Below are positions 16,469 through 32,000 of a stretch of DNA of 32,000 bases, piece after piece. A program made the translations under genes and the position numbers. The DNA lies in NCBI GenBank assembly GCA_015063005.1, contig SUTF01000004.1, positions 23,497-55,496 of the forward strand, written 5' to 3'. Under the pieces are notes generated by a model. It was not told the origin of the DNA. It saw nothing but the letters and a program-made list of their open reading frames with translations, and searched no databases. Position 1 is the first letter of the stretch, and the number at the start of each line of letters is the position of its first letter. This stretch comes from Methanobrevibacter millerae (GTDB taxonomy: Archaea > Methanobacteriota > Methanobacteria > Methanobacteriales > Methanobacteriaceae).

Positions 16469-17879
16469 TTAATTTTTGTTTTATGCTTTCCCACATTGCC
16501 TGCTCTTCACCGCAACCAGTCATGATTACATAATCATACTTTGACTCAACAGCGAGTTCATATAACTTATTGATTCTTTTTGTCATTTCATCATAGCTTA
16601 ACGGATAGAATTCGGCATCAGGATATTCTTTTTTAATGATATTATAATATTCTTCAGCTTTTTCTATGGATTTTCTTCCAGGAACTACAATTACATGAGC
16701 AGGTTTGAGAGCTTTTATCACTTCGAAGTGGTCTTCAAATATTTCCTCTTCATCAACATCAGGTGTTGTGTAGATGAATTCCAAGGGACCTTCAATAAAT
16801 TGATTCATGAATAATGCATTGATTTTTGCTGCATCACCATTATCTCCCTGACCAAGACCTATCAATTTATTTTCATGTTTTACCACTTCAAATCTTCCAG
16901 GAGGGATGAATGACATGTCTAAATTATCAAATACCTTATGGATAGTGCTTTCTATGTTTTCAATTTTTGGAGTGAATGTTGCATAAGTAGTTATTGAAGC
17001 TAAAGTATTGTATATATTGTGGAATCCGAATGGAGGAACTGTTAAATCAACTTTAAACGAAATATCATGTTTATTAGGGAAATTGAATAAGTTTCCTTCA
17101 ATAGTCATCATCCATTTTTCATTGGTAAATTCTATATTTGTCAATTTTACATTTGGTTCTGGGCGTTTAAATCCACATTCACAGGAATATATTCCCCTAT
17201 GATTCAAAAAGCGTTTTTCATAATTTAGTTCTTTTCCGCAGGAAGGACATTCTATCTTATCTGCATCGAAAAAGTCATGAATGTCATCAACTTCAAGGCC
17301 ATAATAATGAACCTTTACATCATTACATTTTTTATAGCCTAAAAATGCAGTTCTTGGATCATCAGTATTGGTTATTATAAATCCCTTATTCATGCCTTTG
17401 GATAATAACTCTTTTGCTTCATAATATTCATTGAAAGGATTTTTAACGCCTGCCACCTGAGCATGCTCCGGTGATATTGTTGTATAGACAACACCAATTG
17501 GGTCAACGACTCTTTGAACTGTATCAGGTATTCCATATTTCTTATTACGAATACCATATTCAAAAACTCCAATTTCTCCTTTTTGCTGAATTAAAGCAGA
17601 AGCAATAGCATTTATTGTATTACTTTCAAAACTACTCCTTATTTCCAAATCATTTGATAATAATTTAATTAAAAGAGTAGTTGTTGTTGTTTTACCGTTT
17701 GTTCCAGTCAATATAATAGAGCCAATACCTAAATCAGAAGATAACTGGGAAATTGCATCAATACCTGCAATTTTTGTAAAAACAATCCCTGCAAAACTTT
17801 TACCACTACCAGACCCTAATTTTGATATGGGCCCTCCGATTTTAGCCAATGATTTTGCAATACTCACTTTAATACTCAT
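16458..17879 (-). CDS. Mur ligase family protein, MurT-like (pseudomurein-type)
   Basis: Mur ligase P-loop ILTGTNGKTTTT at nt 17685-17705. MurT-type zinc ribbon CPSCGKELNYEKRFLNHRGIYSCECGFKRPEP at nt 17175-17249. The N-terminus KLGSGSGKSFAGIVFTKI resembles the MurT S-x-PGKIA region. The track start at 17900 is TTG; ATG at 17879 (MSIKVS...) is preferred. Confidence 0.8.
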   Translation of the reverse strand: MSIKVSIAKSLAKIGGPISKLGSGSGKSFAGIVFTKIAGIDAISQLSSDLGIGSIILTGTNGKTTTTTLLIKLLSNDLEIRSSFESNTINAIASALIQQKGEIGVFEYGIRNKKYGIPDTVQRVVDPIGVVYTTISPEHAQVAGVKNPFNEYYEAKELLSKGMNKGFIITNTDDPRTAFLGYKKCNDVKVHYYGLEVDDIHDFFDADKIECPSCGKELNYEKRFLNHRGIYSCECGFKRPEPNVKLTNIEFTNEKWMMTIEGNLFNFPNKHDISFKVDLTVPPFGFHNIYNTLASITTYATFTPKIENIESTIHKVFDNLDMSFIPPGRFEVVKHENKLIGLGQGDNGDAAKINALFMNQFIEGPLEFIYTTPDVDEEEIFEDHFEVIKALKPAHVIVVPGRKSIEKAEEYYNIIKKEYPDAEFYPLSYDEMTKRINKLYELAVESKYDYVIMTGCGEEQAMWESIKQKLIKR

Positions 17880-17948
17880 AATATTATACTTATAAAACAA
17901 AATATATAATTATTTTGGAAAAAATTAAAAAAAATAGTAGTAAACCAA

Positions 17949-19928
17949 CTAGTTAGTAGTTGGTTTTTGTATGGTTGATTGAGGAACTTTATCAGCAACT
18001 TTTGAACCGATTGATTTCATTTTTTCAATCAATTGGTCTTTTTTGCTTCCACTAATCAAGATATTTTCTAAAACATCACTTAATGTTTCAGTTGGAATAA
18101 TCTCAATCATATCTTCATATTTTTTCTCAATCATTACATCTTTTAAGTTTGATTTTGGAATTAAAACTTTTTTCATTCCGGATTCTGCAGCCGCTTCGAT
18201 TTTAGCTGTAGCACCACCAATAGGCATTACATCTCCACGAACATTTAGTGAACCTGTTAAAGCCACAGTCTGATCGATTGGAATCTCTTCAACAGCAGAT
18301 ATTACAGCGGTAGCTATACTTACACTAGCGGAGTCACCTTCAACCCCATCATAAGTCTGTATAAATTGAACGTGAATATCATAATCTGATAAGTTTTTGT
18401 TAGTGTACTTTTTGATTAATGCACTTACATTTTGAACAGATTCTGAAGCAATTTCTCCAAGTTTACCTGTAGCAATGATTTGACCACCGTTTTTGGATTG
18501 AGCAGGAGCTGCTTCTGCAGCTATAGGGGAAACGATTCCGCTTCTGTCACCAATGACAGCGAGTCCATTTACCAAACCGATTCTTCCACCTTCAGGGTTA
18601 ACCATACTGTATTCTTTTCTTTGGATAATTGATCTGTCAGCCATTTGCTGTTCGAGAGTTCTTGCGAATTTTTTAGCCTCTAAAACATGTTCAGCACTTA
18701 CCAAATCTTCACCATGTTCAATAGCTACATCACCGGAAGATCTGACTAATCCACCAAGCTCCCTTAATCTTAAGGTCAATGCATTTTGTTTTCCGGATCT
18801 ACGTTTAGCTTCCATAATAATTTCATCTAATGCATCTGGAGCGAAATGAGGAATTCTTCCATCATTTTTAACTTCCTGAGCTACAAACTGGACTAATTTT
18901 TCCCTGTTTTCGGTAGTATCTTCCATATAATCTTTCATGAAAACCTCGTAACCGTAACCTCTAATACGAGATCTCATTGCAATGTGCATTCCTTCAAGAA
19001 CTTGAATGTTACCTGATGCTACAAGCACAAAGTCACATGGCACTGCCTGGGATCTGACCATTGCACCACTTGAGTTTTCACTTTGTCCTGTAATTGCATA
19101 TTTCTTTTCCTGCATTGCAGATAATAGTTCCTGTTGGGTTTTCATTGACATTGTACCTATTTCGTCAATGTATAATACTCCACGATTTGCCTTGTGAATC
19201 ATACCTGATTCCACACGCTCATGTGCAGGAGTTCCTAATCCTCCAGATTGGTATGGGTCGTGACGTACATCTCCAAGTAAAGCTCCCGCATGTGCACCAG
19301 TAGCATCCATAAATGGTGCAAATCTTTTATCTTCATTATTTACAAGTAACTTAGGAGCCATCACATTATTTTTAGGCTTGATTTGGAGTGAAATAAGTAA
19401 AATTAATGCTGCTGCAATAATAGATTCAAGAATTCTTCCATAGAAAAATCCTATGACTAATATTCCACCAATAGCTAATGTAGTTATAAGAGTTTTACGT
19501 TCCTCATGTCCTCTAGCAGAACCTTTAGTTGCCTTTACTATTTTTTTACCTTCTCCCGCAGGAACGGTTCTTATTAAAGGATGATTATTATCTTCAACAT
19601 TCGGATAAATCAATACATCTTGAAGAGTTTCATGAGGCAATATCTGAGCCATTCCCTTTGCCAGCATTGATTTTCCAACACCCGGATCACCAATTAACAA
19701 AACATTCCTTCTTTGCTTTGCTGCCTTTTTAATAGTTTCTATGGACTCTTCGTGACCAATAACCTGGTCAATTAATAAAGGAGGAACCTCAATGTCTTTA
19801 GAACTTTTGATATTATCATAATCTAACATAGGTTTAGTTTCGTCACCTTCATCATTTTGTGCAATTTCTGGCTCTAAAACAACCTCTTTAGAAGAATCAT
19901 CAACTGGTTCTTGTTCATCAAATTTCAT
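17949..19928 (-). CDS. lon: Archaeal membrane-bound Lon protease (LonB type)
   Basis: 659 aa. Walker A is [10 protein letters not shown] and Walker B is LYIDEI. Hydrophobic helices are inserted in the AAA+ module ([27 protein letters not shown]). The C-terminal Lon protease domain carries GDSASVS and [10 protein letters not shown]. Confidence 0.93.
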
Positions 19929-20088
19929 TAAAAAACCTCACTATTTCATATAATAAATTCAACATTTATAAAATTCATTTTCCTACTACTAATTATATTG
20001 ATTTTATTATATATAAAAAGTTTTCTAATTTAGTAAACTCAAGTAAGAAAAATAAAAAAAGAAGTAAATGAATATTAATCCTATCCAC

Positions 20089-22614
20089 TTACTCAGAAGT
20101 GACGGTTACTTTATTCGCAATATTACATCCATTATAAGATGAAGTAATAATATACACGCCAGCTTGCAAATTAATATTTAAATGAGCTATACCAGCACTG
20201 TCTGTGGTTCTATTATAAAATACTCCATTAATATTAAATGTTATGGACTGTTCAGCAAAAGGATTGCCCTGACCATCCAACAATTGAACATTGAATTGAT
20301 CACTGCTTCCAAATACTTTTTCAATATCATCAGCAAATAAAATCGGTTTAACAGTAATGTTATTGGATGCCATACATCCATCACAGTCAGCTGTGATTAT
20401 GTAATCACCAGGTTCAAGATTTACATTAAGTTTTGCATGACCTGTTTCGTTTGTTACACGTTTATAGAACACACCATTAATATTAAATTCCACTGTTTTG
20501 CCTGCTCCCGCAACACTGCCATCATCATTCAATATTTTTACAACATATTGGGAATCATTTCTGTAGAATTTAATCAAATCATGATTTTCTATTATTTTGG
20601 ATACGACAACAATCTGATTAGCAGAATTTTCCCCATTTTCCAAATTGGTTGAGGTAATAATGTAGGTTCCTGCCATCAAATTAATATTTAATCTAGCAAC
20701 ACCATCTTCAGTCGTATTCCTATAATAGAATACACCATTGATGTTAAACATGACAGTCTTTTTAGCTAGAGAATTGCCGTTGCCATCAGTGAAGTTTGCA
20801 TAAAACTGAGTACCATTTTTATAAACTTTAACAATGTCTCGTGCAGCAATGGTGGATAAAACTGTAATTTTAGACATTACAGATAAGTTTTCACATTTCA
20901 CGCTAACGTCATATGCACCAGGTTCCAAGTTAATGGCTATTGATGCGGCACCATTTCCATCAGTGACCCTTTTATTGTCAACACCGTTTACAGTAATGAC
21001 TACTTCTTTATCACGTATTGGATTGAATTCACTGTCAAATAAATATGCATAGAAACGAGTACCATTTTTATAATATAATTCCACTTCAGGAGCGGTTAAA
21101 GTAACATTAACATTCACATCAGTTTTATTATCGTCGGAAGTTTGGTTATCATCACCAGTATGATTTTCACTGGAAGTGCCGTTGCCTACTTTAAATGAAA
21201 CAGATTCCTGATTGAAAATATACTTATTGGTGGATACTTTATCATTTGCATCAAGAATTACTTCATATTCACCAGCAGCCAATCCGGACAATGTAATGAC
21301 AGAATTTTCCTTGTTGACAACACCCACTTCATTTCCGGACATTTTAACCGGAATATTGTATTGCATGAAATTTGTACCGACATCAACATAGATGTTTACG
21401 TTTTCATCGCTTCCAGATTGTAATGCAGTTAAAGTATCATTTACTTCAAAGGTACAGTCCTTAATGGTCGGAATGGATCCTTCAATGAATATATGTCTTC
21501 CCTGACTTGCAGTATTATTTATAAAAGTACAATTGTCCACCAAAGCATCTCCACGGGATTCAATATATAATGCTCCTCCATCAGCTTTTGCACTGCAGTT
21601 TGTGAACAATGAATTTTTAATAGTTAGGCTTCCACCTTTTTCAACATAAACTGCCCCACCGTTTCCAGTTCCAATTTTTTTACCATCAGTATTCCAGATT
21701 ACACCACCAACTGAGGTACATTTATCAAAAATACAATTATCAATCAATACATAACTTTCCTTATCCACATCAACACATGCTGCATAGTCAACAGCCCTTG
21801 AATTGGTAAAATTTGAATTATAAATATTTACAGTACCCTTTTTGGTATGGATGATACCTGATTTTGCAGAACAGTTAATGAATTGGCAGTCATAAATATT
21901 TGCTGTTGCTTCCTTGATATTGAAACAGTTTCCTTCTTTTGATGAACCTTTTATGAAAGTACTGTTATAAACATTTAAAATAGAGCGTTCTTCCCCATAA
22001 AAAGATCCTCCTTTTTTAGCAGTGTTTGAGAAAAATGTAGAATCATAAACATTGCAAGTACCTGAATTGTGAATTGCTCCACCTTCTGTTCCCCATCCAG
22101 TATTTTCAGCAAAATAGCAATGATTAACAATCAGATTACCGTTGTTTACAATACCTCCACTGCCTGAGTCTCCAGTTTCAGCATCAAAAAATGTTAAGTT
22201 AATCAATTGGACTGTGCTTCCAGCAGTCGTACGGAAAAAACCGTTTTGATTCAATGCATCGATGATTGATTCGCTATCACCATATCCCTTTAAGGTAATG
22301 GATTTGGAAATGCTCTGCATTGAATTCCAGGCATAGTTTCCTCCCAAAAATACTATAGTATCGCCATTATTTGCACTAGAATAAGCATTATACCAATTTG
22401 TTGGACTATCTGCACTTATTCCAGAGCCAGTTCCCTCCGGACTGATAAATATTTCGCCAGATGCGCTAATTACATAACCCGTATTGTCATCGCCTACTAC
22501 ATCATTAGTCTGATTGAAATCATCACTTGCAAATACGCAAGAAGATGAAATTACAATACTTAAGACAACTAATGCAAATAATAGGGATTTAACCTTATTA
22601 TTTAAAAAAATCAT
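20089..22614 (-). CDS. Secreted adhesin-like protein: signal peptide, right-handed beta-helix repeats, four Ig-like repeats
   Basis: 841 aa. The N-terminal signal-like segment is KSLLFALVVLSIVISSSCVFA. Residues ~85-395 (nt 21430-22362) carry repeated GGA(I/V/L)Y / N-x-x-F-x-N-C-(S/T)A units, as in PbH1 and polymorphic-membrane-protein repeats. The C-terminal region holds four ~84-aa repeats. No C-terminal TM anchor is present. This is typical of Methanobrevibacter adhesin-like proteins. Confidence 0.8.
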   Translation of the reverse strand: MIFLNNKVKSLLFALVVLSIVISSSCVFASDDFNQTNDVVGDDNTGYVISASGEIFISPEGTGSGISADSPTNWYNAYSSANNGDTIVFLGGNYAWNSMQSISKSITLKGYGDSESIIDALNQNGFFRTTAGSTVQLINLTFFDAETGDSGSGGIVNNGNLIVNHCYFAENTGWGTEGGAIHNSGTCNVYDSTFFSNTAKKGGSFYGEERSILNVYNSTFIKGSSKEGNCFNIKEATANIYDCQFINCSAKSGIIHTKKGTVNIYNSNFTNSRAVDYAACVDVDKESYVLIDNCIFDKCTSVGGVIWNTDGKKIGTGNGGAVYVEKGGSLTIKNSLFTNCSAKADGGALYIESRGDALVDNCTFINNTASQGRHIFIEGSIPTIKDCTFEVNDTLTALQSGSDENVNIYVDVGTNFMQYNIPVKMSGNEVGVVNKENSVITLSGLAAGEYEVILDANDKVSTNKYIFNQESVSFKVGNGTSSENHTGDDNQTSDDNKTDVNVNVTLTAPEVELYYKNGTRFYAYLFDSEFNPIRDKEVVITVNGVDNKRVTDGNGAASIAINLEPGAYDVSVKCENLSVMSKITVLSTIAARDIVKVYKNGTQFYANFTDGNGNSLAKKTVMFNINGVFYYRNTTEDGVARLNINLMAGTYIITSTNLENGENSANQIVVVSKIIENHDLIKFYRNDSQYVVKILNDDGSVAGAGKTVEFNINGVFYKRVTNETGHAKLNVNLEPGDYIITADCDGCMASNNITVKPILFADDIEKVFGSSDQFNVQLLDGQGNPFAEQSITFNINGVFYNRTTDSAGIAHLNINLQAGVYIITSSYNGCNIANKVTVTSE
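20092..21102 (-). repeat. Four tandem ~252-nt coding repeats (Ig-like/Big-type domains) inside the adhesin-like gene
   Basis: The protein repeats follow the pattern (K/Y)-x-G-(T/S)-x-F-...-(I/F)-x-(V/I)NGV(F/D)Y.R.T...G.A.L.INL..G.Y.I(T/S). They span approximately aa 505-587, 588-672, 673-757 and 758-841. The periodicity is visible in the DNA, where ccattaatattaaat-like strings recur near 20225, 20474 and 20737. Confidence 0.85.
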
Positions 22615-22628
22615 TTTATCTAATCTCC

Positions 22629-22683
22629 CCTAATTAAAAATTAGGAATGTGAATAAAAATTTATGCATACCTAAATTCACATT
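22629..22683. promoter_or_regulatory. Two adjacent inverted repeats in the adhesin/cobQ divergent intergenic region
   Basis: IR1 is CCTAATT-aaa-AATTAGG at 22629-22645. IR2 is AATGTGAAT at 22646-22654, paired with ATTCACATT at 22675-22683 across a 20-nt spacer. They lie 15-70 nt upstream of the adhesin ATG (22614), in the leader or core-promoter zone. Confidence 0.35.
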
Positions 22684-22771
22684 GGTTATAATTTTTGAAA
22701 ATATAATTATATAAAGATTTACATAGAGATTATTATTAATAGAAAATTTAAAAAAAATAAAGTGATTTTTT

Positions 22772-24301
22772 ATGGCTAAGTGTATTATGGTTCAAGGGAC
22801 ATCATCAAATGCAGGAAAGAGCATGCTTGTAGCAGCTTTATGTAGAATATATAAAAACAGAGGATACAATGTAGCTCCATTCAAATCCCAGAATATGTCT
22901 TTAAACTCATATACGACATTCGAGAATGGTGAAATTGGAATAGCTCAGATGTTACAGGCAGAAGCTGCAATGATTGAACCAAGCATACATATGAACCCAG
23001 TTTTGCTTAAACCAAAGGGAGATTTCACATCCAATGTTATTATTCAAGGAAAATCAATCGGAGACATGAATTTCTATGATTATCAGCATAAATATCATGA
23101 TACTGCTTTTGATGCCATAAAAGAAAGCTTTAAAATATTATCCGAGCAATATGACATAATCATTATTGAGGGTGCCGGTTCCCCTGCAGAGATTAACATG
23201 AGAGATCAGGACATTGCAAATATGGAAATTGCCCATTTAGCGGATGCAAATGTAATATTGATTGCAGATATTGAAATGGGTGGTGTGTTTGCAGCCATTG
23301 CTGGAACATATGTTTTATTGGATGATTATGACAGATCCCGCCTGAAAGCAACCGTCATCAATAAGTTTAGAGGAAACTTAGATATTTTAAAGCCAGGACT
23401 TGACCGGATTGAAGAGATAACCGGTGAGCCTGTTTTAGGAGTACTCCCATATGATGAAACATTAAGGCTTCCCGAAGAGGATTCCGCATCCCTGACAACA
23501 CATAACTTCGAAGATGATAAGGACATCATGATTGGTGTTATCAGACTTCCAAAAATAGCTAATTTCACAGATATTGATCCTTTTGAAGCTGAAAGCGATG
23601 TTGGAATAAGAATGATTGGAATTAACGATGACATTGGTGATGTTGATGCAATCATCATTCCTGGAACACGTAACTCTACACAGGATGCATATGAATTACA
23701 TCAAAGCGGACTTGCAGAAAAAATCATTGCAAAAGCATCAGAAATTCCTATAATTGGAATCTGTGGAGGATTTCAGATTTTAGGTAAAGAAATAATCGAT
23801 GAGGATAAAAAAGAGTCCAAACATGGAAGCATTAAAGGATTAGGATTGCTTCCAATAACCTCAGAGTTTAAACGTGAAGACAAAATCGTTACACAATCCG
23901 AAGCCATTATTCCAGACAATCTTGAAGGCATAGCATCTGAAATGTTTAAAAATATAATTGGCGAGACCATAACCGGTTATGAAATTCATGAAGGAACAAG
24001 CAATCTTTATGATACCAAAGCCCTTTTAAAGATTAAAAAGGGACAGGGAAATGATGAACAGGGAGATGTTGACGGAGCATGCCATGAAAACATTTTTGCA
24101 ACATATTTCCATGGAATATTTAATAACTATAACTTCAGACGGGAATTTTTAAACTACATTAGAGCTAAAAAAGGCCTGGAAATCCAAACCGGAGAAGATC
24201 CATACGAAGCTCAAAAGAATTATTCATTGAATAAGTTAGCTGAAATCGTTGAGGATAATTTGGATATGGACATCATCGATAAGTTAATTTTTTCAGACTA
24301 A
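22772..24301 (+). CDS. cobQ: Cobyric acid synthase
   Basis: 509 aa. The N-terminal CobQ/CobB-type nucleotide-binding domain has MVQGTSSNAGKS and IIIEGAGSPAEINM. The C-terminal type-1 glutamine amidotransferase domain has IIGICGGFQILG and ATYFHGIF. GTGAT RBS lies 6 nt before the ATG. Confidence 0.9.
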   Translation: MAKCIMVQGTSSNAGKSMLVAALCRIYKNRGYNVAPFKSQNMSLNSYTTFENGEIGIAQMLQAEAAMIEPSIHMNPVLLKPKGDFTSNVIIQGKSIGDMNFYDYQHKYHDTAFDAIKESFKILSEQYDIIIIEGAGSPAEINMRDQDIANMEIAHLADANVILIADIEMGGVFAAIAGTYVLLDDYDRSRLKATVINKFRGNLDILKPGLDRIEEITGEPVLGVLPYDETLRLPEEDSASLTTHNFEDDKDIMIGVIRLPKIANFTDIDPFEAESDVGIRMIGINDDIGDVDAIIIPGTRNSTQDAYELHQSGLAEKIIAKASEIPIIGICGGFQILGKEIIDEDKKESKHGSIKGLGLLPITSEFKREDKIVTQSEAIIPDNLEGIASEMFKNIIGETITGYEIHEGTSNLYDTKALLKIKKGQGNDEQGDVDGACHENIFATYFHGIFNNYNFRREFLNYIRAKKGLEIQTGEDPYEAQKNYSLNKLAEIVEDNLDMDIIDKLIFSD

Positions 24302-24356
24302 TATTATATAATATGAAAAACATAAATACTAATACTAATTAAAGGAGATTTAAAAT

Positions 24357-24599
24357 ATGATTGTTAATGTAAAAGCAACTAATAAAAACAATGGCGAAGT
24401 AATTTCATACAAATTAGAAGGCGACTCCACTGCTGGATTCTTATGTGACGGTACCCACATGCAAGAAGTAGCAGATAACAAAATCAGAGAAGTTAACAAC
24501 AACTTAATCTTACAAGGTTCACCTTTATACACCATCAAATCTGGTGAAAGTGCTGAAATCGAAGCAATGACCTTTGACATTGAAATTAACGCTGAATAA
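24357..24599 (+). CDS. Hypothetical small soluble protein (80 aa)
   Basis: A strong AAAGGAGAT RBS lies 7 nt upstream of the ATG, and a hairpin plus T-tract follows the gene. No domain was recognised. The overlapping antisense ORF 24350-24580 is judged spurious. Confidence 0.6.
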   Translation: MIVNVKATNKNNGEVISYKLEGDSTAGFLCDGTHMQEVADNKIREVNNNLILQGSPLYTIKSGESAEIEAMTFDIEINAE

Positions 24600-24626
24600 A
24601 TTTATTCAGCTTCTTTACTATTTTTT
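24591..24626 (+). terminator. Palindromic hairpin plus T-tract after the 80-aa gene
   Basis: GCTGAATAAA/TTTATTCAGC is a perfect 20-nt palindrome at 24591-24610 that contains the TAA stop. It is followed by ttctttactatttttt. Confidence 0.5.
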
Positions 24627-24665
24627 ACCAAAAATCATCATTAAAAAAAAAAGAAATTTGGAGGA

Positions 24666-25505
24666 TTATCCCCCTCCAGGAATGGTATACTTATCGTTAA
24701 CCCCATAGAATATTCCATCCCCTTTTCGTTTTTCGCTTACATTCAATAATGCATTATTGAATATAATATTTAATAGTTTATATCCATCCTTATCAATTAA
24801 ATCTGTTAATGGAGAGTTATTTTCCCTTATGCCTAATGCATCTTTTTCAATGTCAAAGCATGATGCATACAATATTTGAGATGAATTTTCCAAAGCAGAT
24901 TCAGGAGGATATTTCTCAGTCAAATCTTTTGACTTTAAATAATCTTGGAAGTTTTTCCACTCTTTTTTAATTTCCTTTCCTTTGCTTGTTAATTTACCAT
25001 TTTCAAGGATATCTTTATAATTATTGCCATCATATCCATTTTCATTTTCAATAGCTTTAGCAAAGTCCATTAAATCATTTTCGAACTTATTGGCAACTGA
25101 AGAATTGTTACCCTGCTTTGCCATTGATTTTAAATTGAATTTTTTATTTTTGTTCATGTTTTTAAGCAAGTTAATAGCTAATGATTCTGAAGTTTTTAAC
25201 TCACCTTTATTTGCGATTCTAAGCGTTATTTTTTTCATTACTTCCATATCTTGTGGAGTTAATTTTTTTCCAACTTCATGAGAGTCATCCAAATCTATGT
25301 CACATTTGATTTGGTCTTTATTGATTAAATCAAGTATTGTAAGAGATAATGCATTCACACCTATCCCATTATTTTTTGAAAATAATATTGAAACCATAGG
25401 ATATGAATCATCACTTGGAGGATTTTTAATGTTTTCATCATATTTGTTATTGTTTAATCCTAACATATTTACCACATCACAAATATTTTTTTTATTAATC
25501 ACCAT
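24666..25505 (-). CDS. Hypothetical soluble protein; N-terminal segment reminiscent of the DUF2207 cytoplasmic region
   Basis: 279 aa with no hydrophobic helices. NPPSDDSYPMVSILFSKNNGIGVNALSLTILDLINKDQIKCDI resembles the PP..(P)a.vg.L......atlldLa.rG.i segment of DUF2207 proteins; this is from memory and weak. The protein ends in PGGG. Its ATG overlaps the upstream zinc-ribbon gene by 11 nt. Confidence 0.5.
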   Translation of the reverse strand: MVINKKNICDVVNMLGLNNNKYDENIKNPPSDDSYPMVSILFSKNNGIGVNALSLTILDLINKDQIKCDIDLDDSHEVGKKLTPQDMEVMKKITLRIANKGELKTSESLAINLLKNMNKNKKFNLKSMAKQGNNSSVANKFENDLMDFAKAIENENGYDGNNYKDILENGKLTSKGKEIKKEWKNFQDYLKSKDLTEKYPPESALENSSQILYASCFDIEKDALGIRENNSPLTDLIDKDGYKLLNIIFNNALLNVSEKRKGDGIFYGVNDKYTIPGGG

Positions 25506-25677
25506 TTTTTAAAGATTCAAGGTATGCTTCGCGAATTTCCTCAGCGAAATCATCGTTTCCTTCGACAATTGGTCCTGTGTAGTCACAGTCCTTGCAGACA
25601 CATTGTGACCAGTTTTGAGGAATAATCCAATCAATATTTTTAGATCCGCATCTTGGACAAATTTTATGCATTTTCAT
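25495..25677 (-). CDS. Small zinc-ribbon protein (60 aa)
   Basis: CPRCGSKN ... CKDCDY forms a four-Cys ribbon, followed by an acidic C-terminal helix. GGAGAT RBS lies 7 nt upstream of the ATG. Confidence 0.6.
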   Translation of the reverse strand: MKMHKICPRCGSKNIDWIIPQNWSQCVCKDCDYTGPIVEGNDDFAEEIREAYLESLKNGD

Positions 25678-25760
25678 TTTTAAATCTCCATTAATCTTTT
25701 TTGTGTTTTAACCATACACTAATTACCTAGTCTATAAAAAATTGTATATAAATGTTTTTG

Positions 25761-25782
25761 AATGTAAGTGCACACTTACATT
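25761..25782. promoter_or_regulatory. Near-perfect 22-nt palindrome next to a TATA-like box
   Basis: AATGTAAGTG-ca-CACTTACATT has 10-bp arms and a 2-nt centre. On the minus strand it lies 9 nt upstream of TTTATATA (25745-25752), which itself is 68 nt upstream of the zinc-ribbon gene ATG. Confidence 0.4.
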
Positions 25783-25800
25783 ATTAAAATGAGAATAAAT

Positions 25801-25906
25801 AAAAAATTAAAAGTTATAATAAAAAATAACTAAAATTAATGAGTTTAAATAAGAATCAGATAATCCTTGAATTTATTAATGCAATACAATCACCATTCAA
25901 GGATTA
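25801..25906 (-). terminator. Stem-loop plus oligo-T runs downstream of the NRPS-MATE transcription unit
   Basis: The 12-nt arms TAATCCTTGAAT (25861-25872) and ATTCAAGGATTA (25895-25906) are separated by 22 nt and begin 10 nt after the MATE stop. On the minus strand several T5-T6 runs follow (plus-strand A-runs at 25801-25845). Confidence 0.5.
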
Positions 25907-25915
25907 ATTTCTACT

Positions 25916-27643
25916 TTAATTTTTAATGGTTATTACAGTACTGTTTAAACCTAATACCCTGGAGTAGCCAATTTCATCAGCAATTTTATTTAAAACACCA
26001 ATATTATCAAATTCAAGGTTTGGATTTTCAACTACAGGATTGAAGTCAATGCCAGTATCCTTAATAGAAATCAAAATATTATCTTCATTATTTCTAATGA
26101 TGACATCAATAGTATCGACATGTTCATTAATGTTAATGATATTTACTAACATTTCTTCAATAGCCAAGCTAACTAAAGTTACTGATTTATTGCCTTTCAG
26201 ATAATTTTGAACATTCTGAGCTAAATTAACCGCTTGTTTAACATCACCATTAATAGTATGTTCAAATACTTTTGAATCGTCATTATGCTTGTTAATGAAA
26301 AATCCAGAATATTCTCCATCAGTCTTTTTATTATAATATTTTGAATATGCAAATATGAATAATATGGTTAATAATTCAGCTATTGCAAATGAAATCCAAA
26401 TTCCATTTCCACCAATTGCAGAAGACAATATAACTGCTGCTGAAATTGGCAATACAAATCCTTCAAGCAATGAGATAATTGTTGATAATTGATTTTTTTG
26501 AATAGCTTGAGAATAAAAAGTATATAAAAATGTAATAGCAATACCAACATAGCTTATTGCAAATATTCTCAATGCATTTAATACAACAGGAACATCTGCA
26601 GGATTTTTAACACTATACAGGAACAATAAAGATTGAGGATAAACAATAAATAATACAGATAGTGCTAAACTTGAAGCAATGACAATTTTTAAAGATCTTT
26701 TAATTATATAATTGACTCCAGAATAGTCCTCTTCCTTAAAGTAAACGGATACGATTGGAGACATTGTTTGTGCAGTTCCAATCAAGAAAATATATAAAAT
26801 AAATAAACTGTTATAACAAATACTGAATGCGACAACACCTGATTTTCCTATATAAAGGCCTATTAAAAAGTTTATGATAAGTAACTTCAAAGTTAAGTAC
26901 AACTGGGTTGATGCTGATGAAAATCCTGATGTTACTATTTTTTTAAGGAAACTGAAGAACGAATTAATTTTCAATTTAATAAATTCTAATGTGCGCTCTT
27001 TTTTAAAGAAGTAATAAGAAATTAAGATAGATCCCACCAAATAACCTGTTGAAGTAGCATATGCTGCACCTGAAAGACCCATGCCAAATAAACTGATATA
27101 AATTACATCACAACAAATATTTACAAGATTTGCAATCAATATAGCCCTAAATGGCAATGTTGGAATACCATCTGCCCTTATGAAATAAGATAAACTCATC
27201 ATATAACATAAAAAAGGCATTCCGATAATTAAAGCAACAAAAAATTGATTAACATCATTGACTAAAGCAGGCTGTGAAGAACATAACAATTGAGCAATAT
27301 TGCCCGAAAACAGCAAACCAAAAATAGTAATCAATATTCCGATGGATATCAGTGAAATAATCGATACTGAAAAGTAACTATTACTTTTTTCTTCATCAAA
27401 TTCGGCTTTTGCAACAGAACAAAGTACACTACCACCTAATCCAATCATCCAGTAAATAAGATTGACAAATGTGATTACAGGAGCAACAATTTGAATCGGT
27501 GCAAGATTACCTGCACCAATCAAAAAACTTACAATCAGTCCATCTACAAAAATACAAATATTTCCTGCCATTGATGTAAATAATGTTGGCAGGAAAAATT
27601 CCCTAAATTTATTTTTTAACAGTTCATAGTTTCTTTCATACAT
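25916..27643 (-). CDS. MATE family efflux transporter with C-terminal GHKL/RsbW-like ATPase domain
   Basis: 575 aa. Residues 1-~435 are polytopic (about 12 hydrophobic helices) with the MATE-like N-terminus FFLPTLFTSMAGNICIFVDGLIVSFLIG. Residues ~458-575 (nt 25919-26272) are soluble. They carry LAIEEMLVNII (N-box-like E..N), IKDTGIDFNP (D-x-G-x-G-like) and GLNSTVITI, resembling anti-sigma-factor kinases of the SpoIIAB/RsbW type. Confidence 0.85.
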   Translation of the reverse strand: MYERNYELLKNKFREFFLPTLFTSMAGNICIFVDGLIVSFLIGAGNLAPIQIVAPVITFVNLIYWMIGLGGSVLCSVAKAEFDEEKSNSYFSVSIISLISIGILITIFGLLFSGNIAQLLCSSQPALVNDVNQFFVALIIGMPFLCYMMSLSYFIRADGIPTLPFRAILIANLVNICCDVIYISLFGMGLSGAAYATSTGYLVGSILISYYFFKKERTLEFIKLKINSFFSFLKKIVTSGFSSASTQLYLTLKLLIINFLIGLYIGKSGVVAFSICYNSLFILYIFLIGTAQTMSPIVSVYFKEEDYSGVNYIIKRSLKIVIASSLALSVLFIVYPQSLLFLYSVKNPADVPVVLNALRIFAISYVGIAITFLYTFYSQAIQKNQLSTIISLLEGFVLPISAAVILSSAIGGNGIWISFAIAELLTILFIFAYSKYYNKKTDGEYSGFFINKHNDDSKVFEHTINGDVKQAVNLAQNVQNYLKGNKSVTLVSLAIEEMLVNIININEHVDTIDVIIRNNEDNILISIKDTGIDFNPVVENPNLEFDNIGVLNKIADEIGYSRVLGLNSTVITIKN

Positions 27644-27649
27644 TGTTTA

Positions 27650-27654
27650 CCTCT
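27650..27654 (-). promoter_or_regulatory. RBS of the MATE gene overlapping the NRPS stop codon
   Basis: The minus strand reads TAGAGGTAAACAATG. GAGGT begins inside the NRPS TAG stop, and 5 nt separate it from the MATE ATG. This implies co-transcription and coupled translation. Confidence 0.6.
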
Positions 27655-30600
27655 AAATACTAAAAAAATCTAAATCATCCAAATATTTAATAAAATTATA
27701 TATGTATTCTTGTGATACAAACGGCCATTTAATACCTAAACGATACAACACCTGAATAGTATAAGTATTATCAACAGGTACCCAAATCTTTTTAACTTTT
27801 CCAGAACCTATTGAAGTAATTAGACCAGACACTCCGTCCTGTTTGGATTTATCTGCAAGAGCTTTATCTAAAGCAATTTCATATTCATTTTCTTCAGCAG
27901 GATCGATATTTAATCCTAAAGGTTTGATAATTTCAATTATATCTCCAAAGCAAACACGATGATAATCATATGGATGGAAAACATTGCATTCTTTAGGAGT
28001 TTTTGAAAGATTTACAATGGCCTTTGCAGTCGTGTCAATTGGTGAAAATTCCACATTGTTCATTAGCATTGAATAAGGCATTTTTCCTATTGTTATAAAT
28101 GCTTTTAAACGATTGATGAAACCGTTTGATTCAAAATTGATTTGGAATTCACTGTCTGAGCTTCTTGCCATCAAGTTTCCAACCCTCATTATTTTCACAT
28201 CCAAATCATCATTGATAGCTGCTTCCAGTACTGCGCGTTCTGCTAGGAATTTAGAATTGAGATATTGGTTATCTACAGCCTGACCAATAAATAAATCATT
28301 TTCTGAGAATTTAACATCAACGGGAGGATAATTGTTAATGCTTTCACCTGCAATACTGTATGTAGATACTTGAACATATTTTGCATCTTTCATTTTTGCA
28401 AATTTAAGTCCATTTATTACACCACCAAAGTTAATGTCTTCAATATCTGTTCCGGATGAGAAGTGTTTAACATTAGCCGCACAATTAATTATCGTATCAA
28501 TTTTTTCAGGAATAAGCTTTTCAAAGTCTTCAAAGTTAGTAATATCACCTTCAATTATATGCAATCTTTCATCAAACAAATCAGAATATTCATCGGAGAA
28601 GTAATAAAACAATAATGATTTCAATCTTTCTTCTCCATTCAATACTTTATTAGCTCTGATAAAACAGTAAACATCCCCAGTTTCATTATCAAGTATTTCA
28701 CGAAGCACATGTATTCCCAAAAATCCAGTAGCTCCAGTAAGTAAAATATTACCTAAACTATCCTGAATTTCACCATTAATAAGATTTTCAAGATTATTTT
28801 TCTTAAGCAATTCATTAATTTGAGAGTAATCATAGGACAATTCTTCTTTTTTCTCAAATGATTCATCAGATAAAATAAACTCTGCCAATGCTCTTGGCGT
28901 TGGATTTGAGAAAACATCACCATAGCTCAAATTATAATTTCTATTTAAAGCTTCCATTGTGATTTTAGTAACTAAAAGTGAAGTTCCACCAATTTCAAAG
29001 AAGTTATCTGTGGCGCTTACCTCATCCAGTCCCAAAATTTCTGCAAATAAACTGGCGAAGAATGCTTCAATATCATTTTCAGGAGCAACATATTCTGTAA
29101 TTAAAACTGGTTCAGGCAAGTTCCTCAAGTCTGTTTTACCATTTACTGTTTGAGGCATTTCATCAAGTTCCATGTAAACAGTTGGAACCATATAATATAC
29201 CAATTTTTCAGCAAGTGATGCTTTTAAATCATCAATATTAATGGAATATCCATTTTCTTCACGATTTTCATCTTTGTACTCATCATGAACCGTGAAGTAG
29301 GCACATAAATGATCATTTCCTTTAATCTTTTTAACAACAACAGCAACTGATTTTATTCCAGGGAATTTTGAAAGGCCCACTTCAATTTCACCTATTTCAA
29401 TTCTTAAACCTCTAAGCTTAATTTGATTATCCATTCTTCCGAATACATAATAATTTCCATCTTCCGTGACTTTAACAAAGTCTCCTGAACGATAGAATCT
29501 GACTCCATTAATGACTTCATAGCTTTCAGCATTTTTCTCAGGCCGGTTTAAATATTCCCTTGAAACACCTTTTCCAGCAATATATAATTCCCCAATAACA
29601 TTTGGAGGCAATGGATTTGAATCAAAGTCCATAACCATTTCATGAACATTGAATAGCTCCTTACCAATGTGAATATCTGAGCTTTCCAACAGGTGCCCAT
29701 TACAATAAACTGTTGTTTCTGTTGGTCCATACATATTAAAGAATTTTCCGTTAGAATTTTTGGAAAGCAATTCATATAATCTTGCTGAGAAGGGTTCACC
29801 AGCATGAATATATACTTTAAAACCATACATCGTTTCTTGCATTGCTTCAATTTCCAAATATTGGAGTAAACGTGAAGGTGTAGCGATGTAAACATTTGCT
29901 CCAGACCTATGAATCAAATTCATCATTTCAATTGGATCCTTGTATTCTGTATCATCAGCAAATACCATTGGAACTCCATTCAATAAAGATCCCATTAATT
30001 CCTGCTGGAATACATCAAATGCTACAGTTGTAGTAGATAATACTTTATAATTTTCTTTTTCAAGATTGTGCACTAATTCATAAGTACAAACATTTCTAGG
30101 GTCAGGATATGCGAAGTTTGCAATGTTTCCATGCTCCAAAATTACTCCTTTTGGAAGTCCGGTTGAACCTGAAGTGTAAATCAGATAAGCCATATTATTT
30201 GCATGCACATCAGGATTAGGATTTGAAGTGTCTTCTTCTTTTAACAATTCATTAACATCCAATAAATTATTAGAGCATGTAGATAAATCAATACCTTTTT
30301 TATCAACTACATCATCAACAATAATAAATTTTGATTCACTATCAGTTAAAACATGCTCAATTCTTTCTGTAGGATATTCTGAGTCCACAGGAATAAATGC
30401 AGCACCTGATTTTAAAATACCAAACACTGACGCCATTACATTACTATTCCTGTTTAATATAAACATTATTCTATCTTCAGGACAAACACCTTTTTTAATA
30501 AGACTATGGGCAATCCTATTTGCCTTTTCATTTAACTGTGAATATGTAAACTCACCATCACTGGCATATAAAATAACCCTATCAGGATGCAATTCCACCT

Positions 30601-32000
30601 GATTTTCAAATATTTTGTTTAATCTTTCCTCAGGAATTTCATCATACTCAAAACTATCAATGCCCCAATCATCACTTTCTATTATTGAAATGTCTTTCAT
30701 CAGTGTATTTTCATCAAATGTTTGGAATTTATTTAAAACAATTCTAATAGAATCCAGGAATGTATTGATTAAAGATTCTGTGTATAGTTGATTGTTGTAT
30801 TCACAGAAAATTCTGTATTGATTATCAATTTCAACTACATTGATGCTAATTTTAAATTTCAATCCATCATAGTCAATTGATTGTCTTTCAACATTCATTC
30901 CACCGATTTCAATGTCTTCAATGATTTTTCCATGATATGCATATAATATTTCCGGAGTGATTCCGAATTCATTTGAAATTTCAGTTAAAGGATATGATGA
31001 ATAAGCCAATACATTTAACCATTCAGAATTTACATATTCCAAGTATTCCTTAAGATTTGAATCAGAATTTAATTTTAATGCTAAAGGTAACGTTTTAACC
31101 ATCATGGCCAATGTTTTCTGCTGATTTGGATTGAACCTACCATTAGTGATAGTTGCAATCAGTGTGTCCCTGTTAAAGACAAACTTATTTATAACAAATG
31201 AAGTAACGGCCAAGAATAAATTATTTTGAGATATATTTGATTTTAAACAGAAATCATCTACACTTTCTTTATCAAGGAATATATCTTCCACTGCAGCATT
31301 GCCCTCAGATTCATCACCATTTATATCCTGTGGGATTAGTGTTGCATCATCAAATTCTTTAATTCTATTTGAGAAGAATAATTTAGCTTCTTCGTATAAA
31401 CCTGATTGTTCTGTTTTAACTTCATTTAAAGAGTATTCAAAACCGTCAAGTTCCTCCAGTTCATAATCTTTTCCATCATAGATTTTAGCTATTTCATCGA
31501 ATAAAATGTTTAGGGATGTTCCATCAACAAGAATATGGTGGAAATCCGCAAGCAGCATTGAATTGCCAACTATCTTAAATCTAAATAATGGCCCTTCATC
31601 AAGTTTAAACGGTTTTACAAATTCATCTATATTAACTTCATCAACCACTTCAATAAAATCATCGACTTTCAGATTATTCTTTCTTTTTTGATAGGCATCA
31701 CCATTTTCCATCACAATTATTGTTTTTAAATATGGATGGTTTTCAATAGCTTTAACAATTGAGGATTTGAGTTTTTCTGCATCAATACCATCCCCAAATT
31801 CCATTTTCTTTGGAAGATTATATGCTGTATTTTCAGGATCTTTAATGCAGTCAAAGTAAACACCCAGTTGATTAGAAGTTAATGGATATAATTCTTGAAC
31901 ATCACTTGATTCAGTATCTTCAATTTTTATTTCAGATGCAATTTTTTCAATAGTTTTATATTTTAAAATCTCAGTAACATTTAGCTGAGCATTTAAATTA
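27653..32000 (-). CDS. Non-ribosomal peptide synthetase, terminal module C-A-T-R; 5'-truncated (continues beyond window)
   Basis: I translated nt 31805-32000 by hand in the same frame. It gives NLNAQLNVTEILKYKTIEKIASEIKIEDTESSDVQELYPLTSNQLGVYFDCIKDPENTAYNLPKK with no stop. The gene therefore extends past nt 32000, and the ATG at 31804 is internal. All canonical NRPS core motifs are present; see the domain features. Confidence 0.95.
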   Translation of the reverse strand, partial: NLNAQLNVTEILKYKTIEKIASEIKIEDTESSDVQELYPLTSNQLGVYFDCIKDPENTAYNLPKKMEFGDGIDAEKLKSSIVKAIENHPYLKTIIVMENGDAYQKRKNNLKVDDFIEVVDEVNIDEFVKPFKLDEGPLFRFKIVGNSMLLADFHHILVDGTSLNILFDEIAKIYDGKDYELEELDGFEYSLNEVKTEQSGLYEEAKLFFSNRIKEFDDATLIPQDINGDESEGNAAVEDIFLDKESVDDFCLKSNISQNNLFLAVTSFVINKFVFNRDTLIATITNGRFNPNQQKTLAMMVKTLPLALKLNSDSNLKEYLEYVNSEWLNVLAYSSYPLTEISNEFGITPEILYAYHGKIIEDIEIGGMNVERQSIDYDGLKFKISINVVEIDNQYRIFCEYNNQLYTESLINTFLDSIRIVLNKFQTFDENTLMKDISIIESDDWGIDSFEYDEIPEERLNKIFENQVELHPDRVILYASDGEFTYSQLNEKANRIAHSLIKKGVCPEDRIMFILNRNSNVMASVFGILKSGAAFIPVDSEYPTERIEHVLTDSESKFIIVDDVVDKKGIDLSTCSNNLLDVNELLKEEDTSNPNPDVHANNMAYLIYTSGSTGLPKGVILEHGNIANFAYPDPRNVCTYELVHNLEKENYKVLSTTTVAFDVFQQELMGSLLNGVPMVFADDTEYKDPIEMMNLIHRSGANVYIATPSRLLQYLEIEAMQETMYGFKVYIHAGEPFSARLYELLSKNSNGKFFNMYGPTETTVYCNGHLLESSDIHIGKELFNVHEMVMDFDSNPLPPNVIGELYIAGKGVSREYLNRPEKNAESYEVINGVRFYRSGDFVKVTEDGNYYVFGRMDNQIKLRGLRIEIGEIEVGLSKFPGIKSVAVVVKKIKGNDHLCAYFTVHDEYKDENREENGYSINIDDLKASLAEKLVYYMVPTVYMELDEMPQTVNGKTDLRNLPEPVLITEYVAPENDIEAFFASLFAEILGLDEVSATDNFFEIGGTSLLVTKITMEALNRNYNLSYGDVFSNPTPRALAEFILSDESFEKKEELSYDYSQINELLKKNNLENLINGEIQDSLGNILLTGATGFLGIHVLREILDNETGDVYCFIRANKVLNGEERLKSLLFYYFSDEYSDLFDERLHIIEGDITNFEDFEKLIPEKIDTIINCAANVKHFSSGTDIEDINFGGVINGLKFAKMKDAKYVQVSTYSIAGESINNYPPVDVKFSENDLFIGQAVDNQYLNSKFLAERAVLEAAINDDLDVKIMRVGNLMARSSDSEFQINFESNGFINRLKAFITIGKMPYSMLMNNVEFSPIDTTAKAIVNLSKTPKECNVFHPYDYHRVCFGDIIEIIKPLGLNIDPAEENEYEIALDKALADKSKQDGVSGLITSIGSGKVKKIWVPVDNTYTIQVLYRLGIKWPFVSQEYIYNFIKYLDDLDFFSI
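27656..28753 (-). other. NRPS terminal thioester reductase (R) domain, SDR fold
   Basis: The Rossmann motif LLTGATGFLG was verified at nt 28715-28738. Also present are VYCFIRA, GDIT, IINCAANVKH, the catalytic YLNSK (YxxxK) and RVGNL. No TE domain is present. Confidence 0.9.
28874..29083 (-). other. NRPS thiolation (T/PCP) domain
   Basis: The core is DNFFEIGGTSLL. The phosphopantetheine-attachment Ser codon was verified at nt 28979-28981. Confidence 0.9.
29108..30631 (-). other. NRPS adenylation (A) domain
   Basis: Core motifs A1-A10 are all present. A1 FTYSQLNEKANR, A2 LKSGAAFIPVD, A3 LIYTSGSTGLPKGV, A4 FDVF, A5 NMYGPTE. A6 GELYIAGKGVSREYL, A7 YRSGDF, A8 GRMDNQIKLRGLRIEIGEIE, A9 LVYYMVP, A10 NGKTDLRNLP. 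Confidence 0.95.
30680..31888 (-). other. NRPS condensation (C) domain
   Basis: The domain starts at YPLTSNQLGVYF. The catalytic HHxxxDG motif reads HHILVDG and was verified at nt 31520-31540. Confidence 0.9.
31928..32000 (-). other. C-terminal end of a carrier-protein (T) domain from the preceding NRPS module
   Basis: LNVTEILKYKTIEKIASEI resembles the last helix of a PCP domain. It is followed by an acidic linker and then the C-domain start, YPLTSNQ. Confidence 0.6.

Follow-up and report, generated by a model that had tools for sequence, protein, structure and literature searches.

The window analysed here, a 32,000-nt stretch of Methanobrevibacter millerae DNA, ends in the complete final module of a two-module nonribosomal peptide synthetase (NRPS) of a rumen Methanobrevibacter. 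The favored reading, with a probability of about 0.8, is that this is the termination module of a functional and vertically maintained bimodular NRPS. The NRPS frame occupies 27653-31999 on the minus strand. Translated from base 31999, the frame runs through 1,448 codons to its first stop, the TAG at 27655-27653, and the remaining two frames contained many stops. The ORF listing shows only 27653-31804 because ORFs are counted there from the first ATG, while the frame itself is open to the window edge. The initial annotation had described a complete condensation-adenylation-thiolation-reductase (C-A-T-R) module in a frame open to the window end, and this reading, its strand included, was borne out by the translation and the Pfam domains. 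The window was 100% identical to L001 (Ga0216347_10000445), a 74-kb rumen metagenome contig. The features of the window were as follows.

31925..31999, minus strand: C-terminal tail of T1, the module-1 carrier domain (translation; the full protein on L001 has these residues after its T1 PP-binding match)
30725..31900, minus strand: condensation domain C2 (PF00668, 1.1e-51, fragment residues 34-425)
29135..30610, minus strand: adenylation domain A2 (PF00501 AMP-binding, residues 464-817, 1.2e-69; PF13193 AMP-binding_C, residues 871-955)
28874..29056, minus strand: carrier domain T2 (PF00550, 5e-10, fragment residues 982-1042)
27665..28750, minus strand: terminal thioester reductase R (PF07993 NAD_binding_4, 1.6e-35, residues 1087-1328)
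27653..27655, minus strand: NRPS stop codon, 9 nt ahead of the MatE start codon (sequence)
25916..27643, minus strand: MATE-family efflux protein (MatE), 575 aa (PF01554, 6.2e-23)
25919..26305, minus strand: RsbW/SpoIIAB-like (GHKL) cytoplasmic domain fused to the MATE C-terminus (PF13581, 7e-5, below the Pfam cut-off)
20089-22614: adhesin-like protein with a Big_1 C-terminus
17949-19928: LonB
16458-17900: Mur-ligase-like protein
12323-13237: Prs

The last four genes were found as first described (LonB, MurT-like ligase, adhesin-like protein, archaeal Prs), and the assignment to a Methanobacteriales host holds. Profile searches recovered the condensation, adenylation, carrier and NAD-binding domains (PF00668, PF00501, PF00550, PF07993). 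Every motif named previously (HHILVDG, the ten A motifs, GGTSL, TGATGFLG and YLNSK) was located by regular expression. HHILVDG, the C2 catalytic motif of the HHxxxDG type, starts at residue 154 (window 31540). Core motifs A1-A5 of A2 read TYSQL, LKSGAAFIPVD, YTSGSTGLPKG, FDVF and NMYGPTE and A6-A10 read GELYIAGKGVSREY, YRSGD, GRMDNQIKLRGLRIEIGEIE, LVYYMVP and NGKTD, so that 10/10 were found, including the A10 lysine. A2 scored 329 bits against TIGR01733, above the cut-off of 317. The phosphopantetheine-attachment serine of T2 lies in GGTSL, with GGTS at residue 1004. In R the Rossmann motif TGATGFLG was found at residue 1088 and YLNSK at residue 1246, together with a conserved ST seen on alignment with 6VTJ and AusA. 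R matched TIGR01746 over residues 1084-1445 (1.6e-40), although at 139.5 bits this was below the curated cut-off of 213.

On L001 the full NRPS is 2,606 aa and is composed of a starter C domain, a dead C remnant, A1, T1, C2, A2, T2 and R. The starter C motif is QHILLDG. The second C domain is a remnant of the C-terminal subdomain. The T1 PP-binding match spans residues 1119-1180 of the 2,606-aa protein, and the first ~25 residues of the window fragment (NLNAQLNVTEILKYKTIEKIASEIK) are the end of this module-1 carrier domain, in line with the carrier-domain tail noted in the initial annotation. Its expectation of at least one more module outside the window was also correct and can be refined to exactly one module plus an extra N-terminal C domain. 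The 7.8-kb frame, window portion included, was intact in L001, L002 and L004. The frame in L001 thus has no upstream frameshift or stop of the kind that would have made the gene a pseudogene remnant.

The initial annotation had pointed to the NRPSs of Methanobrevibacter ruminantium M1 (Leahy et al. 2010), and this was apt, as the locus fits the mru0068 cluster type (PMC2812497). In M1, mru0066-mru0069 comprise two C-A-T modules and a terminal reductase (Figure S8 legend), with genes for a serine phosphatase and an anti-sigma-factor antagonist alongside and a MatE efflux gene following (PMC2812497). The gene table and Pfam matches of L001 gave a bimodular NRPS, a terminal reductase, and Ser phosphatase, STAS and MatE flanks, as in the PMC2812497 description of the mru0068 type. 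Compared with that published description, layout, host genus and rumen niche are the same (PMC2812497). Judged by that description and the domain content, the locus is a homologue of the published mru0068-type system. It differs in having a separate RsbW-like gene between the phosphatase and STAS genes and an extra complete N-terminal C domain ahead of the C-domain remnant. The PCP-R structures of another M. ruminantium NRPS, Mru_0351 (6VTJ/6VTZ; Deshpande et al. 2021, PMC8024701), share the Rossmann motif, ST and YxxxK with R. Mru_0351 is likewise followed by a MatE gene (PMC2812497), but it has four modules compared to two here.

AusA, the aureusimine synthetase of Staphylococcus aureus, has the layout A-T-C-A-T-R without an N-terminal C domain. 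Both enzymes are bimodular and end in T-R, while only the enzyme described here has an N-terminal C domain. The AusA NCBIfam model NF047350 was the top family match of the 1,448-aa fragment at 700 bits, far below the equivalog cut-off of 2,500. By this score the window NRPS is a relative of AusA and not a member of the AusA equivalog.

The prediction of reductive release, made in the initial annotation from the R domain, was upheld by homology. The best solved relative of T2-R was Mru_0351 PCP-R (6VTJ, 3e-106 over 477 residues), followed by AusA PCP-R (4F6L, 1.5e-55), and the ST and Y..SK columns of R aligned with both 6VTJ and AusA. R-like redox-inactive domains exist in tetramate-forming hybrid synthetases, and an R*-type terminal domain would instead imply release by Dieckmann or other non-reductive cyclisation. 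This is highly improbable for the present enzyme, in which the TGATGFLG and ST...YxxxK catalytic residues are whole and line up with their counterparts in 6VTJ and AusA, and in which neither a PKS module nor a beta-keto substrate is present. Either an aldehyde or an alcohol can result from NRPS R domains that share this fold, and the two outcomes cannot yet be told apart from sequence (PMC8024701). Four-electron reduction by R, with the same assembly line yielding a peptide alcohol and not an aldehyde or cyclic imine, would be compatible with this and with the significant PDB match to the alcohol-forming R domain of MxaA (7.6e-12). It is nonetheless rather unlikely, as after Mru_0351 the R domain of AusA is by far the nearest of the characterised relatives and the AusA aldehyde cyclises to pyrazinones. 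Release of dipeptide aldehydes by reduction is also reported for a related gut-bacterial family, according to the passage on Guo et al. 2017 in PMC8210680.

Substrate predictions were based on 10-residue codes and alignment to GrsA. The A2 code, aligned to GrsA-PheA, is DVQIIAMVYK. It matches the published Pro codes DVQYIAHVVK and DVQFVAQVVK (PMC9113097) at 7/10 positions, and proline, or a compound closely analogous to it, is predicted as the most likely A2 substrate. The A1 code is IVRGIGSIAK, which lacks Asp235. This residue of A domains normally binds the alpha-amino group. A substrate that bears a carboxylate side group and lacks an alpha-amine beside the activated carboxyl would account for I235/R239. 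A1 is without a characterised counterpart, and the I235/R239 code was confined to close relatives among the 1,041 A-domain codes extracted from the A1-domain search matches. In that exhaustive search of representatives giant multi-module NRPSs were ranked by summed score, and the matches were without annotation. A literature search with the exact codes IVRGIGSIAK and DVQIIAMVYK gave no match and returned Pro-type codes only.

The related gene was found at 41 loci in species-representative genomes, all of them Methanobacteriaceae. The initial annotation called NRPSs very rare in archaea; this stands for archaea as a whole but not for rumen methanogens, given these 41 loci and the 687 NRPS clusters reported in 125 rumen archaeal genomes (Anderson & Fernando 2021, PMC8241843). 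The 2,606-aa gene is present at full length and in one frame, with 78-87% identity, in approximately 30 Methanobrevibacter species-representative genomes, and likewise at two loci that are further removed (62-71% identity). Forms of 2,190 aa also occur. Among the homologues dN/dS was 0.06-0.14. In a 99.65%-identical sister strain a TT (2-bp) deletion inside A2 splits the gene into 1,884 and 723 aa, and the deletion is common to three independent sister-strain assemblies (L003, L005 and L006). The gene is thus dispensable at least in some strains. That deletion, with the absence of a PPTase gene nearby, is what could be said for the NRPS being a bacterial gene that was acquired by horizontal transfer, is now in decay and makes nothing. 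Such decay is very unlikely, however, since the frame is whole in the window, L001, L002, L004 and some 30 species, the dN/dS values are low and all catalytic motifs are kept.

Bacterial contamination had been named in the initial annotation as something that would refute its reading. The nearest non-archaeal homologues are indeed NRPSs of gut Clostridia, Eubacterium and Bacteroidales (35-44% identity), as would be expected if bacterial DNA had been misjoined to an archaeal contig through contamination or chimeric assembly. The probability of this is considered negligible. The junctions NRPS/MatE/DUF2207_C/CobQ/adhesin-like/LonB/Mur ligase recur in six assemblies (JGI, ENA, NCBI) of the 24 contigs read. 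Codon usage of the NRPS correlates at 0.95 with that of the window housekeeping genes, its GC3 is 0.215 compared to 0.21-0.32, and 41/41 related loci are in Methanobacteriaceae. No tRNA genes, which are possible integration-site marks, were found in the window.

Methanobrevibacter dominates ruminant methane production. NRPS genes of this type have been known since 2010 and are widespread in the genus, and their products are uncharacterised fifteen years after discovery. The initial annotation had stated that no archaeal NRPS product was characterised, which still held in 2021 (PMC8024701), and no report later than that paper was found in the literature search. Similar archaeal NRPSs have been published and are frequent among rumen genomes, so the finding as such is not surprising. 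For one cluster, which is widely conserved and under strong selection, the whole architecture is now established. Two substrate hypotheses were gained, a reduced C-terminal residue that is putatively Pro-like and a probably non-canonical first unit. The synthetase and its unusual pump also occur in a gut Clostridia cluster. With the architecture, the substrate hypotheses and the pump link, heterologous production and rumen protease-inhibitor or signalling assays are directly feasible.

The MatE gene has the same orientation as the NRPS and starts 9 nt downstream of it. It directly follows the NRPS in 39/41 related loci and in the Clostridia homologue cluster. The two genes are probably co-transcribed, and MatE likely exports the NRPS product. 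A scan of the NRPS-MatE junction for sigma-70 promoters and terminators gave hits at shuffle level, the sigma-70 model not being applicable to archaea. Transcription of the NRPS, MatE and PPTase genes is on record for M. ruminantium M1 (PMC5816558). A stand-alone RsbW-like protein is encoded upstream of the NRPS, and the C-terminal domain of the MATE protein matches it with 32% identity across 94 aa (E 1e-7). The AF2 model of this C-terminal domain had a pLDDT of 64.5 and a pTM of 0.60. RsbW/SpoIIAB/UsfX chains were the top 15 Foldseek PDB matches of this model and 18/20 of the top 20, with TM values of 0.56-0.75. On L001 the divergent genes upstream of the NRPS encode STAS, RsbW-like and SpoIIE-phosphatase proteins. 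Where the flank was long enough, most loci had STAS upstream, and the whole STAS/RsbW-like/SpoIIE trio was present in ~18. In a limited paper collection, no relevant literature was found on the fusion of MATE pumps with RsbW or on partner switching in archaea.

In the proposed mechanism A2 would adenylate proline or a close analogue, the most likely substrate, and attach it to the T2 phosphopantetheine arm. The T1-held unit selected by A1, possibly N-acylated by the starter C domain, would then be transferred by C2 to the T2-bound residue. Cleavage of the thioester by R with NAD(P)H would give a C-terminal aldehyde, which may remain linear, close into an imine or a pyrazinone-type ring, or undergo further reduction to the alcohol. 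The product would be carried out by the MATE pump. The divergent genes for STAS, RsbW-like kinase and membrane SpoIIE phosphatase may provide phosphorylation-based control. The holo-enzyme would need a PPTase. As initially annotated, PPTase, MbtH and thioesterase families had no match in any window ORF scanned; PPTase also had no match among the called genes of L001, and the M1 PPTase is encoded away from the NRPS cluster (PMC2812497). A more speculative and on balance doubtful extension is that NRPS and MATE form a cassette common to gut Clostridia and rumen methanogens. The RsbW-like domain of the pump would here be the output of a sigma-free partner-switching circuit (STAS, RsbW-like kinase, membrane SpoIIE phosphatase) that acts as a post-translational gate on export or synthesis. 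An acyl-X-prolinal-type protease inhibitor of an unusual kind would be the product, its first residue selected by the Asp235-less, Arg239-bearing A domain without characterised counterpart.

Homologues from gut Clostridia, Eubacterium, Muribaculaceae and Bacteroidales aligned over ~2,000-2,360 residues at 35-44% identity. At ~2,420-2,470 aa they have the C-A-T-C-A-T-R architecture in common with the enzyme described here, and they may belong to the dipeptide-aldehyde family of Guo et al. 2017, as cited in PMC8210680. In the R-domain tree the archaeal enzymes formed a clade of their own. The A1 code is conserved as IVRGIGSIAK in the archaeal enzymes compared to DAMFSG..-type codes in the bacterial enzymes, and the A2 code is DVQIIAMVYK compared to DMKN[ML]GTVSK. 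A 394-aa gene upstream of the Clostridia NRPS was considered as the origin of the archaeal extra N-terminal C domain and was rejected, the sequences being unrelated. In the Clostridia homologue cluster the gene after the NRPS encodes a 591-aa MatE that also ends in a HATPase_c_2-like domain and is 31% identical to the window MatE over its full length. This Clostridia MATE counterpart carries an RsbW-like domain as well.

The NRPS of the window was read on the minus strand from base 31999, which gave 1,448 codons up to a first stop, TAG at 27655-27653. The two remaining minus-strand frames of the region were stop-rich. The following Pfam domains were found in this fragment:

Fragment residues 34-425, minus strand: Condensation
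Fragment residues 464-817, minus strand: AMP-binding
Fragment residues 871-955, minus strand: AMP-binding_C
Fragment residues 982-1042, minus strand: PP-binding
Fragment residues 1087-1328, minus strand: NAD_binding_4

All scored far in excess of their cut-offs. The amino-acid adenylation model of NCBIfam passed its cut-off, and the thioester-reductase model matched with an E value of 1.6e-40, yet fell under its curated score. A-domain cores A1 to A10 were all recovered by regular expression. Fragment residues 1 to ~25 are the end of a further carrier domain. No PPTase, MbtH or type II thioesterase genes were found in a family scan of the window ORFs. The initial annotation had described a C-A-T-R module with its quoted motifs, a frame open to the window edge, a preceding carrier-domain tail and the absence of PPTase, MbtH-like and type II thioesterase genes. 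Since domains, every quoted motif, open frame, carrier tail and gene absences all agree, that description was correct in each checkable detail. This first reading of the locus is borne out and its interpretation supported, while its statement on rarity is outdated.

The MatE protein, encoded directly downstream as a MATE-family efflux protein, was used as a search query and was carried by 24 public contigs. The 74-kb JGI rumen metagenome contig L001 was 100% identical to window 15916-32000. Five more assemblies (ENA, NCBI), among them MAG GCA_017622775.1, labelled Methanobrevibacter sp., had 99.6-99.99% identity to the window. The full NRPS in L001 is 2,606 aa long and its upstream part comprises:

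L001 2171-4030, outside the window: complete C domain (QHILLDG) and C-terminal-subdomain remnant of a C domain
L001 4604-5449, outside the window: A1 domain, residues 812-1093 of the full protein

The complete C domain spans residues 1-405 and its QHILLDG motif retains the second, catalytic His. It is followed by a segment of ~210 residues with no Pfam match, which aligned to positions 172-412 of the C2 segment with 25.6% identity and is thus a C-terminal-subdomain remnant of a C domain, without the active-site half. The order then continues A1, T1, C2, A2, T2, R, so the expected "at least one more module" outside the window is narrowed to exactly one. Related Methanobrevibacter enzymes of 2,190 aa start at the C-domain remnant; the starter C was either lost in these or gained in the 2,606-aa enzyme. 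Public MAG annotations already list this exact protein (P0046), named as an NRPS or adenylation-domain protein.

Scanning a single genome for each species gave 41 related loci with 62-90% protein identity; apart from one Methanosphaera and one Methanobacteriaceae MAG, all were Methanobrevibacter. In about 30 of the loci the complete 2,606-aa domain order lay in a single frame. NRPSs had been called very rare in archaea. For this niche that does not hold, given 41 species-level loci and the 687 NRPS clusters reported from 125 rumen archaeal genomes (Anderson & Fernando 2021, PMC8241843). Pairwise dN/dS of the NRPS against six species was 0.06-0.14. The relative synonymous codon usage of the NRPS correlated with that of window housekeeping genes at 0.95, and its GC3 was inside their range. 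A pseudogene remnant is ruled out by the single-frame conservation and dN/dS values, and bacterial contamination by the distribution across Methanobacteriaceae and the host-like codon usage and GC3. Three assemblies made independently from a 99.65%-identical strain (L003, L005 and L006) have lost TT from a T4 run (window 29819-29822, minus strand; L001 7822-7823). The resulting frameshift lies within A2 and breaks the NRPS into products of 1,884 and 723 aa. The frame at this site is intact in the window, L001, L002 and L004. The deletion is read from these sequences as a natural loss-of-function allele, alongside strong constraint between species.

NRPSs have been known in Methanobrevibacter since 2010, and the initial annotation pointed to Leahy et al. 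2010 on M. ruminantium M1 (PMC2812497). There, mru0068 is a two-module NRPS amid serine phosphatases, an anti-sigma-factor antagonist and a MatE efflux protein, and the legend of Figure S8 places a thioester reductase domain in it (PMC2812497). The locus as completed in L001 likewise combines a two-module NRPS and reductase with a phosphatase, STAS/antagonist and MatE, and this agreement in layout makes the window NRPS a homologue of the published cluster type. Transcription of the NRPS, MatE and PPTase genes has been recorded in M. ruminantium, with mild induction by lauric acid (PMC5816558).

The best matches outside Methanobacteriaceae were C-A-T-C-A-T-R proteins of 2,420-2,470 aa with 35-44% identity, labelled Clostridia, Eubacterium, Muribaculaceae and Bacteroidales. 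The R domains were placed in a neighbour-joining tree, a distance tree of partly unnamed sequences that is indicative only. There the query fell within a large archaeal clade adjoining a large bacterial clade, and a second Methanobrevibacter group formed a separate branch. The Clostridia homologue P0098 is more telling on origin than this tree. A 591-aa MatE starts 4 nt after its NRPS and aligned to the window MatE over the full length, C-terminal domain included (31% identity, E 5e-76). A two-gene NRPS-MatE cassette common to Clostridia and an archaeon favours shared ancestry through horizontal transfer, which had been put forward for these NRPSs before (PMC2812497, PMC8241843). The codon usage is fully ameliorated, so the transfer would be old. 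LonB, CobQ and the adhesin-like gene (window 1-24600) were non-syntenic in the other species (loci L007-L047), and two genomes (RUG11674, RUG648) had two NRPS loci each, which indicates that the cassette moved or was duplicated within the genus.

The A1 and A2 domains were aligned to GrsA-PheA for ten-residue specificity codes. The reference was a fragment which we take to be GrsA, and its ten residues reproduced DAWTIAAICK. The A1 code is IVRGIGSIAK, with Ile in place of Asp235 and Arg at 239. Asp235 is present in nearly all amino-acid A domains. The local alignment of A1 and A2 is gap-free (SFIVFLRE versus AFDVFQQE). IVRGIGSIAK was conserved in all Methanobrevibacter homologues down to 57% identity and, among 1,041 A domains of top representatives, occurred in close relatives only. 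No characterised counterpart was found in a literature search or among these domains. The code is also in elongation modules of the related NRPSs P0070, P0031 and P0078, so the substrate of A1 must bear a nucleophile. Arg239 characterises A domains in which amino-dicarboxylic acids are activated at the side-chain carboxyl (ACV synthetase module 1, McyE, McyB2). From this background role, an iso-linked Glu/Asp-type unit may be one candidate for A1. The A2 code, within the window, is DVQIIAMVYK; in the close clade it was conserved or varied only as DVQV[IL]AMVYK. Published proline codes such as DVQYIAHVVK agree with it at 7 of 10 positions (PMC9113097).

[quoted passage not shown] The nucleotide-binding motif, ST and YxxxK columns were conserved in the alignment to both. 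In this family NAD(P)H-dependent release yields an aldehyde, or an alcohol after a second reduction (PMC8024701), and free-amine aldehydes cyclise to pyrazinones (PMC8024701; PMC8210680). The predicted reductive release is thus supported at the level of homology and catalytic columns. The aureusimine synthetase (AusA) equivalog scored 700 bits against a cut-off of 2,500 bits, so the NRPS should not be filed under it. The working prediction is an (acyl-)X-Pro aldehyde that would leave the cell through the MATE pump, with roughly even odds each for the Pro part and for the aldehyde part. The earlier statement that no NRPS product from these archaea is characterised still held in 2021 (PMC8024701), and a literature search found no later account of one. 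The interest of the locus is in this uncharacterised product, the conserved non-canonical A1 and a pump fusion common to a Clostridia cluster.

MatE starts 9 nt after the NRPS stop on the same strand and was downstream of the NRPS in 39 of the 41 loci. The features are:

Window 25919-26305, minus strand: RsbW/SpoIIAB-like GHKL domain, C-terminus of the MatE gene (25916-27643)
L001 1-1686, outside the window, upstream of and divergent from the NRPS: STAS protein, RsbW-like kinase and membrane SpoIIE/PP2C phosphatase

The STAS protein has an ISSAGL phospho-serine-type motif, the RsbW-like protein is 125 aa with HATPase_c_2, and the SpoIIE-family phosphatase has a hydrophobic N-terminus. This is a bacterial-type partner-switching trio in an archaeon. 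STAS was upstream in most loci with sufficient flank and the whole trio in about 18.

MatE is 575 aa with a cytoplasmic C-terminal domain of ~129 residues. This domain matched HATPase_c_2 weakly (7e-5) and the adjoining stand-alone RsbW-like protein with 32% identity (E 1e-7). Its AF2 model was moderate (pLDDT 64.5, pTM 0.60); RsbW, SpoIIAB or UsfX chains made up all of the 15 best PDB matches and 18 of the best 20 (TM 0.56-0.75). The N-box and a D-x-G-I-[DE]-F-N-P motif are the same in both proteins. The G2 glycine box is degenerate in MatE, FDNIGVL versus IGGLGIL in the stand-alone protein, so the MatE domain may serve only to dock a STAS partner. The domain is kept in Methanobrevibacter MatE orthologues of ~575 aa and in the 591-aa Clostridia counterpart adjoining a homologous NRPS. 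Archaea are not known to have sigma factors, and the partner-switching genes therefore need another output. An obvious candidate is the pump domain, which may act as a STAS docking site in sigma-independent partner switching. No papers on a MATE-RsbW fusion or archaeal partner switching were found in a literature search of limited scope.

Directly downstream of MatE, window 24666-25677 (minus strand) encodes a zinc-ribbon-like ORF of 60 aa and a membrane protein with DUF2207_C. In several further species (e.g. loci L015, L031, L033, L041, L044 and L046) MatE is again followed by a DUF2207_C homologue, and this gene may be part of the NRPS cluster. Window 20089-22614 (minus strand) encodes an 841-aa adhesin-like protein with a beta-helix region; its C-terminal domain is Big_1-like, the 'M1-C' type described for M. 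ruminantium adhesin-like proteins (PMC2812497).
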